64,000 nucleotides of DNA from Escherichia coli (GTDB taxonomy: Bacteria; Pseudomonadota; Gammaproteobacteria; Enterobacterales; Enterobacteriaceae): NCBI RefSeq assembly GCF_048403405.1, contig NZ_CP183135.1; one strand, written 5' to 3'. Positions 62,597 through 63,566 of the stretch are shown here, in pieces. Made by a program: the position numbers and the translations under genes. Position 1 is the first letter of the stretch; every line of letters starts with the position of its first letter. The notes below the pieces were generated by a model. The model was given only the letters and a program-made list of their open reading frames with translations. It made no database searches and was not told the origin of the DNA.

Positions 62597-63566
62597 TGAA
62601 GCGTGCGCCTGTTATTCCAAAACATACGCTCAATACTCAACCGGTTGAAGATACTTCGTTATCGACACCAGCTGCCCCGATGGTGGATTCGTTAATTGCG
62701 CGCGTAGGAGTAATGGCTCGCGGTAATGCCATTACTTTGCCTGTATGTGGTCGGGATGTGAAGTTTACTCTTGAAGTGCTCCGGGGTGATAGTGTTGAGA
62801 AGACCTCTCGGGTATGGTCAGGTAATGAACGTGACCAGGAGCTGCTTACTGAGGACGCACTGGATGATCTCATCCCTTCTTTTCTACTGACTGGTCAACA
62901 GACACCGGCGTTCGGTCGAAGAGTATCTGGTGTCATAGAAATTGCCGATGGGAGTCGCCGTCGTAAAGCTGCTGCACTTACCGAAAGTGATTATCGTGTT
63001 CTGGTTGGCGAGCTGGATGATGAGCAGATGGCTGCATTATCCAGATTGGGTAACGATTATCGCCCAACAAGTGCTTATGAACGTGGTCAGCGTTATGCAA
63101 GCCGATTGCAGAATGAATTTGCTGGAAATATTTCTGCGCTGGCTGATGCGGAAAATATTTCACGTAAGATTATTACCCGCTGTATCAACACAGCCAAATT
63201 GCCTAAATCAGTTGTTGCTCTTTTTCTCACCCCGGTGAACTATCTGCCCGGTCAGGTGATGCACTTCAAAAAGCCTTTACAGATAAAGAGGAATTACTTA
63301 AGCAGCAGGCATCTAACCTTCATGAGCAGAAAAAAGCTGGGGTGATATTTGAAGCTGAAGAAGTTATCACTCTTTTAACTTCTGTGCTTAAAACGTCATC
63401 TGCATCAAGAACTAGTTTAAGCTCACGACATCAGTTTGCTCCTGGAGCGACAGTATTGTATAAGGGCGATAAAATGGTGCTTAACCTGGACAGGTCTCGT
63501 GTTCCAACTGAGTGTATAGAGAAAATTGAGGCCATTCTTAAGGAACTTGAAAAGCCAGCACCCTGA
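62596..63566 (+). pseudogene. sopB: partition protein SopB with -1 frameshift in a T run (T5 at 63221-63225, T6 expected)
   Basis: Track ORFs 62596..63345 and 63342..63566 together give SopB; one extra T restores ...[23 protein letters not shown]... Confidence 0.8.

Follow-up and report, generated by a model that had tools for sequence, protein, structure and literature searches.

The stretch of Escherichia coli DNA analysed here (the window; 64,000 nucleotides of contig NZ_CP183135.1) carries towards its end a partition locus of the kind known from the F plasmid, a SopABC system of the type Ia ParABS class linked to the RepFIA replicon. The gene order is that of F, namely ccdAB, a resD-like integrase gene, repE, sopA, sopB and sopC, with the SopA ATPase gene immediately upstream of sopB and a centromere of 43-bp repeats downstream. 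The product of repE (60087-60842) is WP_000852146.1, the same protein as in the related plasmids and in F. The partition locus comprises the following features:

61430-62596, plus strand: sopA, intact, encoding a Walker-type ParA ATPase identical to that of F in DNA and protein
62596-63345, plus strand: sopB reading frame as written, from the list of open reading frames and comparison with F
63221-63225, plus strand: run of five T (T5) in sopB, one base short of the six (T6) found in F and in about 99% of records
63222-63566, plus strand: remainder of sopB in the +1 frame, covering the rest of the helix-turn-helix (HTH) and the dimerisation domain; its translation is the wild-type SopB C-terminus
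63654-63898, no strand assigned: sopC centromere, 5.7 tandem copies of the 43-bp unit by tandem-repeat count

The initial annotation had described sopA and sopC as intact. For sopA this holds to the last base, since there are no nucleotide differences from F sopA and the protein is WP_000772446.1 in both; the mechanical list of open reading frames puts the start of the gene at 61421. For sopC the description is only partly accurate: the array is present, lies wholly inside the window and shares the 43-bp consensus unit of F, but has 5.7 copies, about half of the 10.7 counted in F with the same tool. This shorter array is common to the close relatives of the window and continues without gaps into all of them, including those with T6. 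The number of sopC copies varies between near-identical sop loci, from 2.7 in pOkiPb01693_1 (a pO157-type plasmid) and 5.7 in the window to 8.7 in pB1.H1.18.c1 (an ST131-type backbone) and 10.7 in F; the arrays used for this comparison lie at 12555-12928 of locus L011, 9276-9390 of L027 and 115-574 of L035. Apart from the length of the array, the difference from F is the split of sopB as written. The locus is an ordinary F-type SopABC system, with nothing new in kind, under either of the two main explanations considered below.

The T5 run (sequence gttgctcTTTTTctcaccc) lies within the interval 63211-63235 in which a frameshift had been suspected, and the count of five T, one short of the number expected, is correct. 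As written, the sopB reading frame encodes 249 amino acids, which follow the wild-type sequence to residue 210 and continue in an out-of-frame tail of 39 residues (ending in KKLG) to a stop at 63345; the split falls at codons 209-211. The +1 frame from 63222 encodes the authentic SopB C-terminus (ending in KPAP). Addition of one T yields a protein of 323 amino acids identical to SopB of the F plasmid (WP_000817031.1), and the gene then differs from that of F by one silent nucleotide. The window carries a single defined one-base deletion relative to about 2230 other records, and its difference from these relatives at the T run is not a chance effect.

The Pfam domain SoPB_HTH covers residues 158-232 of SopB, and the reading frame of the window matches 57 of the 75 profile positions before it is cut. 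Solved structures of SopB comprise residues 148-323 (PDB 3mky) and the dimerisation domain at residues 274-323 (PDB 3kz5), and in the window the latter residues are encoded in the +1 frame only. A full-length SopB with SoPB_HTH and the dimerisation domain in one frame is thus obtained only when one T is restored. If real, the T5 allele is predicted to be null for sopC binding, because SoPB_HTH is interrupted at about residue 210 and the dimerisation domain is lost; the earlier claim that such a frameshift would abolish SopB function agrees with this domain layout.

A 251-bp stretch around the T run was found in 2252 records from 5426 complete E. coli genomes; 22 of these records have the exact T5 version and 2230 do not. 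No complete E. coli record matched a version with seven T, and none combined T6 with a shortening to A5 of the A6 run that follows in sopB after about 110 bp. This makes the change a rare one, seen only as a deletion and only at this run. Of the 40 best matches listed from PLSDB for positions 61400-64000, two cover 2601 bases and the other 38 cover 2602. All 22 T5 accessions are recent. They belong to 10 strain series, here taken as separate studies, and three of these series contribute 14 of the 22 records. Within each of the three main series, T5 is found on unrelated backbones or in different sopB alleles. For example, the four Thai CUVET records with T5 represent three sopB alleles (WP_367776538.1, WP_368430212.1 and WP_374694627.1); the Taiwanese CRE series has T5 on an aerobactin/sit backbone (CRE389) and on a vapBC/AAA-ATPase backbone (CRE444); and the Taiwanese CREC series has it on an aerobactin/sit backbone (strain 605) and on a phd-doc/SMODS backbone (strain 455). 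The distribution of T5 follows strain series or pipeline, not lineage, and a real mutation would require many independent identical events clustered by laboratory.

The sopB stretch also occurs at 30 chromosomal places among the complete E. coli records. In strain 2020N08-094, for example, the same 24-kb segment carrying sit, iuc, vapBC, ccdAB, repE and sopAB lies at 416277-440279 of NZ_CM132303.1, a chromosome record of 5.03 Mb; this copy stems either from integration of an IncF plasmid or from a misjoin in the assembly.

The closest relatives of the window are plasmids that are almost identical to it. Positions 1-37665 match pCREC571-1 and positions 28000-64000 match pCREC605-1, in each case except for one SNP. 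Over positions 40000-64000 the siblings are zero to one SNP away from the window, and every insertion or deletion among them is a one-base change in a homopolymer. Compared with the FDAARGOS_433 plasmid, their run lengths are as follows:

Window: C6 to C5 (nuclease); sopB T5
Strain 605: C6 to C5 (nuclease); sopB T5
Strain 774: C8 to C7 (iucB), C6 to C5 (nuclease); sopB T6
Strain 572: C8 to C7 (iucB), C6 to C5 (nuclease); sopB T6
Strain 571: C5 to C4 (uvrD), C6 to C5 (nuclease); sopB T6
Strain 613: no shortened runs; sopB T6
CRE389: C8 to C7 (iucB), C4 to C3 (iucC), C6 to C5 (nuclease); sopB T5

Two SNPs, taken from a matrix against FDAARGOS_433, define a Taiwanese clade, in which T5 is present in three of seven members; it is also present outside the clade. 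In strain 774, which shows no SNPs relative to the window over 24 kb, the run is nevertheless T6 and sopB is intact. The idea that T5 marks a plasmid lineage by inheritance was rejected, given its homoplasy against the SNPs. A G/A SNP at window position 55417 (aaatGcccggg versus aaatAcccggg) is common to the window and strain 774 only; it conflicts with the T5 and C7 states, since every one of the four possible combinations occurs, and so may itself be a basecalling error.

The changes in run length are strongly directional. Comparison of 13 related assemblies with FDAARGOS_433 gave 83 deletions and one insertion. On the other hand, at least 31 records from other studies, with sources as diverse as dog, human, poultry, food and sewage, match positions 40000-64000 with equal span (24003 bases) and equal score, and hence show no insertion or deletion in this segment.

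Within the window itself, four one-base deficits and no insertions were detected among 83 homopolymer runs of at least six bases, and three genes are broken as a result. Besides the T run of sopB, the affected runs are:

28289-28293: five G, six in p675SK2_B; breaks a gene for a TonB-dependent receptor of the haem/transferrin type (26807-28776, minus strand)
32101-32107: seven A, eight in p675SK2_B; intergenic
55933-55937: five C, six in the references; breaks a gene for an OLD-family ATP-dependent nuclease (about 55191-56755, minus strand), next to vapBC

The NCBI annotation (PGAP) flags the receptor gene as frameshifted in the siblings 605 and 571, and the gene is intact in 675SK2. The nuclease gene is flagged in the same way in 605, 774, 571, 572 and CRE389, and is intact in 613, FDAARGOS_433 and CUVET17-972. 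The shortened C run in this gene recurs in unrelated assemblies, which include the Taiwanese CREC and CRE series, CUVET19-1704 and three GCA records, and it looks like a second site of systematic under-calling. Three of the four shortened runs in the window directly follow a CT-rich stretch (tctctcc before G5, gatctct before C5 and gttgctc before T5), a context that would fit a context-dependent miscall.

The reference p675SK2_B evidently contains homopolymer errors as well, because three other runs are each one base shorter in it than in the window (C runs at about 20117 and 24981 and an A run at about 32086); its genes flagged as frameshifted are blaOXA-1, at the first of the C runs, and istB, at the second. 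Relative to the same plasmid, the window has a 1.3-kb insertion at 14481-15808, which corresponds to the IS110-family element IS4321 annotated in pCREC571-1 and adjoins a truncated Tn3-family transposase gene. The FDAARGOS_433 plasmid and pCREC613-1 are free of the extra frameshifts found in other siblings. The aerobactin gene iucD (about 49158-50491 in the window) is flagged as frameshifted in every relative examined, these two plasmids included, and thus seems to be a true pseudogene shared by the lineage or else to deviate from the PGAP reference model; a frameshifted IS1 transposase gene at about 53244-53930 shows the same pattern.

The truncated SopB is widespread in protein and contig databases. 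The 249-aa sequence in its exact form is recorded for 259 contigs, with 123 and 28 more for two close variants, which brings the three together to more than 400 contigs. An index of assembled contigs lists the exact product in 307 blocks; in 262 of these blocks the contigs are shorter than 10 kb. Among the long contigs that encode it are assemblies with sopA, ccdB, the integrase gene and other genes in pieces, and two error-ridden carrier assemblies have 21 and 31-38 deletions in 14 kb. Short Logan contigs with T5 lose further bases, for example C5 to C4 in ccdB and A6 to A5 in sopA, although the contigs compared carry rare protein variants only and form a biased sample. The treatment of the allele by PGAP is inconsistent: it is a frameshifted pseudogene in CE0007a, CRE444, KE41, CRE389 and 455, and an ordinary coding sequence of 249 aa with a RefSeq WP_ accession in 605, the CUVET records, AVS0969, B1.H1.18 and OkiPb01693.

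The T missing from sopB was most likely lost when a homopolymer was under-called in the consensus of a long-read (Nanopore-type) assembly, and not by mutation of the plasmid. We infer an error of basecalling or consensus from the comparisons described above. This reading of the sequence is favoured because the deficit is accompanied by others, because siblings are mutually inconsistent and because T5 is homoplasic against SNPs; in addition, T5 clusters by strain series across backbones, its pattern is deletion-only and site-specific, and the segment is invariant in other studies. Some other carriers of the truncated product are error-ridden assemblies, and one T5 carrier, OkiPb01693, is documented as sequenced by Nanopore alone. 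Set against high-quality references (FDAARGOS_433, F and about 2230 records), a homopolymer of at least five bases is one base short; further errors of the same kind and with the same deletion bias are present in the window (four to none) and in the 13 related assemblies, and T5, which occurs on differing backbones and in differing alleles, is distributed by study or pipeline and not by phylogeny. The pattern thus resembles the errors of assemblies made from long reads only: a single base is lost from a six-base run, deletions are nearly the only class of change, the same few runs are affected in unrelated assemblies, siblings disagree, and other genes are broken alongside. A further likeness is found in the lengths recorded for the Taiwanese 169-kb plasmids, which lie a few bases apart (169206, 169208, 169209, 169212 and 169223). 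A point of difference is that one T5 carrier is a modern R10.4.1 assembly, which looks clean apart from the sopB site. A literature search found no sequencing methods for the CUVET and CREC assemblies; for the other named T5 carriers, papers were found for OkiPb01693 and CE0007a only, and a search for published homopolymer frameshifts in sopB returned irrelevant papers only. If the under-call is accepted, the real plasmid would carry T6 and an intact F-type sopABC, with SopA and SopB identical to those of F and a shorter sopC array. The initial annotation, which had proposed an inactive partition system, had already named an assembly artefact as the alternative; the comparative evidence favours that alternative and leaves the proposed inactivation unsupported.

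The principal rival explanation is that T6 became T5 by a real replication-slippage mutation that inactivated SopB, which, judged from the sequence comparisons, we consider unlikely. Homopolymer runs are established natural hot spots of slippage, and a T6 run is one such site in vivo. The frameshift itself is unambiguous and falls within the DNA-binding domain. The product would keep the N-terminal part that interacts with SopA, but with the HTH incomplete and the dimerisation domain missing altogether it would neither bind sopC nor act as a co-repressor. Inheritance would then rest on RepFIB, on post-segregational killing by ccdAB and vapBC, on the ResD-like resolvase and on any partition loci outside the window. 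RepFIB, ccdAB and vagCD had been named as back-ups in the first reading of the sequence, and all three are indeed in the window, as is the ResD-like integrase gene, at the following coordinates transferred from the annotation of the near-identical pCREC605-1:

34007-34984, minus strand: repB of RepFIB
56830-57473, minus strand: vapBC (vagCD)
58033-58558: ccdAB
58559-59365: ResD-like integrase gene

Certain T5 carriers also speak for a real mutation. The assembly of OkiPb01693 was made from Nanopore R10.4.1 reads only, with super-accuracy basecalling and Hybracter (PMC12613899). In the 29 kb displayed, its plasmid pOkiPb01693_1 is free of further frameshift flags, and T5 is its sole difference over 19.7 kb from three T6 siblings assembled by the same pipeline. 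A real mutation, or an error highly specific to this site, would fit this case better, and among the T5 carriers it is the strongest candidate for a true sopB mutation. The plasmid (82292 bp) differs from these siblings structurally too, because it is about 11 kb shorter than they are (93160 bp; same study). In pCUVET17-972.1, T5 is the only insertion or deletion in 30 kb. CE0007a, a third carrier, was sequenced with R9 reads, and its paper gives short-read Pilon polishing for Flye assemblies only, so that polishing of the record with short reads is possible, not certain. The many short contigs that encode the truncated product could likewise be taken in favour of a real allele. Against this stand the homoplasy of T5 relative to SNP-defined clades and its concentration in certain strain series across unrelated backbones. 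The equivalent A6 run of sopB is never shortened and T7 never occurs. In the window and its siblings, unrelated genes are broken by further homopolymer deletions that disagree from one plasmid to the next. The invariance of the 24-kb segment in other studies also argues against slippage.

A broader form of the same idea, that the T6 run of sopB is a genuine recurrent slippage hot spot at which multi-replicon IncF plasmids (FIA with FIB and/or FII) repeatedly switch off FIA partition, is rather improbable. Were it true, loss of SopB would be neutral or even advantageous in the presence of other maintenance modules; pOkiPb01693_1 would be one real example and the window maybe another. Finally, ribosomal +1 frameshifting, or transcriptional slippage at the T residues, might allow the T5 allele to yield full-length SopB. 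Nothing speaks for this beyond a short T run at the frame junction; it is highly improbable and was rejected because the two-frame arrangement is not conserved as a programmed event would be (a single frame is used in 2230 of 2252 records, about 99% of homologues, and in F). Efficient transcriptional slippage needs runs of about nine or more A or T, so that rescue on a five-base run would be negligible.

If T5 were real in the window, a large IncF plasmid of resistance and virulence (aerobactin, sit, blaOXA-1 and aac(6')-Ib-cr) would persist with its FIA partition system out of action, which for a plasmid with several replicons is a modest and unsurprising outcome. Of more practical use is the lesson that the T6 run of sopB and the C6 run of the OLD-family nuclease gene appear to be under-called time and again in genomes deposited as 'complete', and that the 249-aa product, which is recorded under the ordinary accessions WP_367776538.1, WP_368430212.1 and WP_374694627.1, can mislead analyses of pseudogenes and of plasmid stability.
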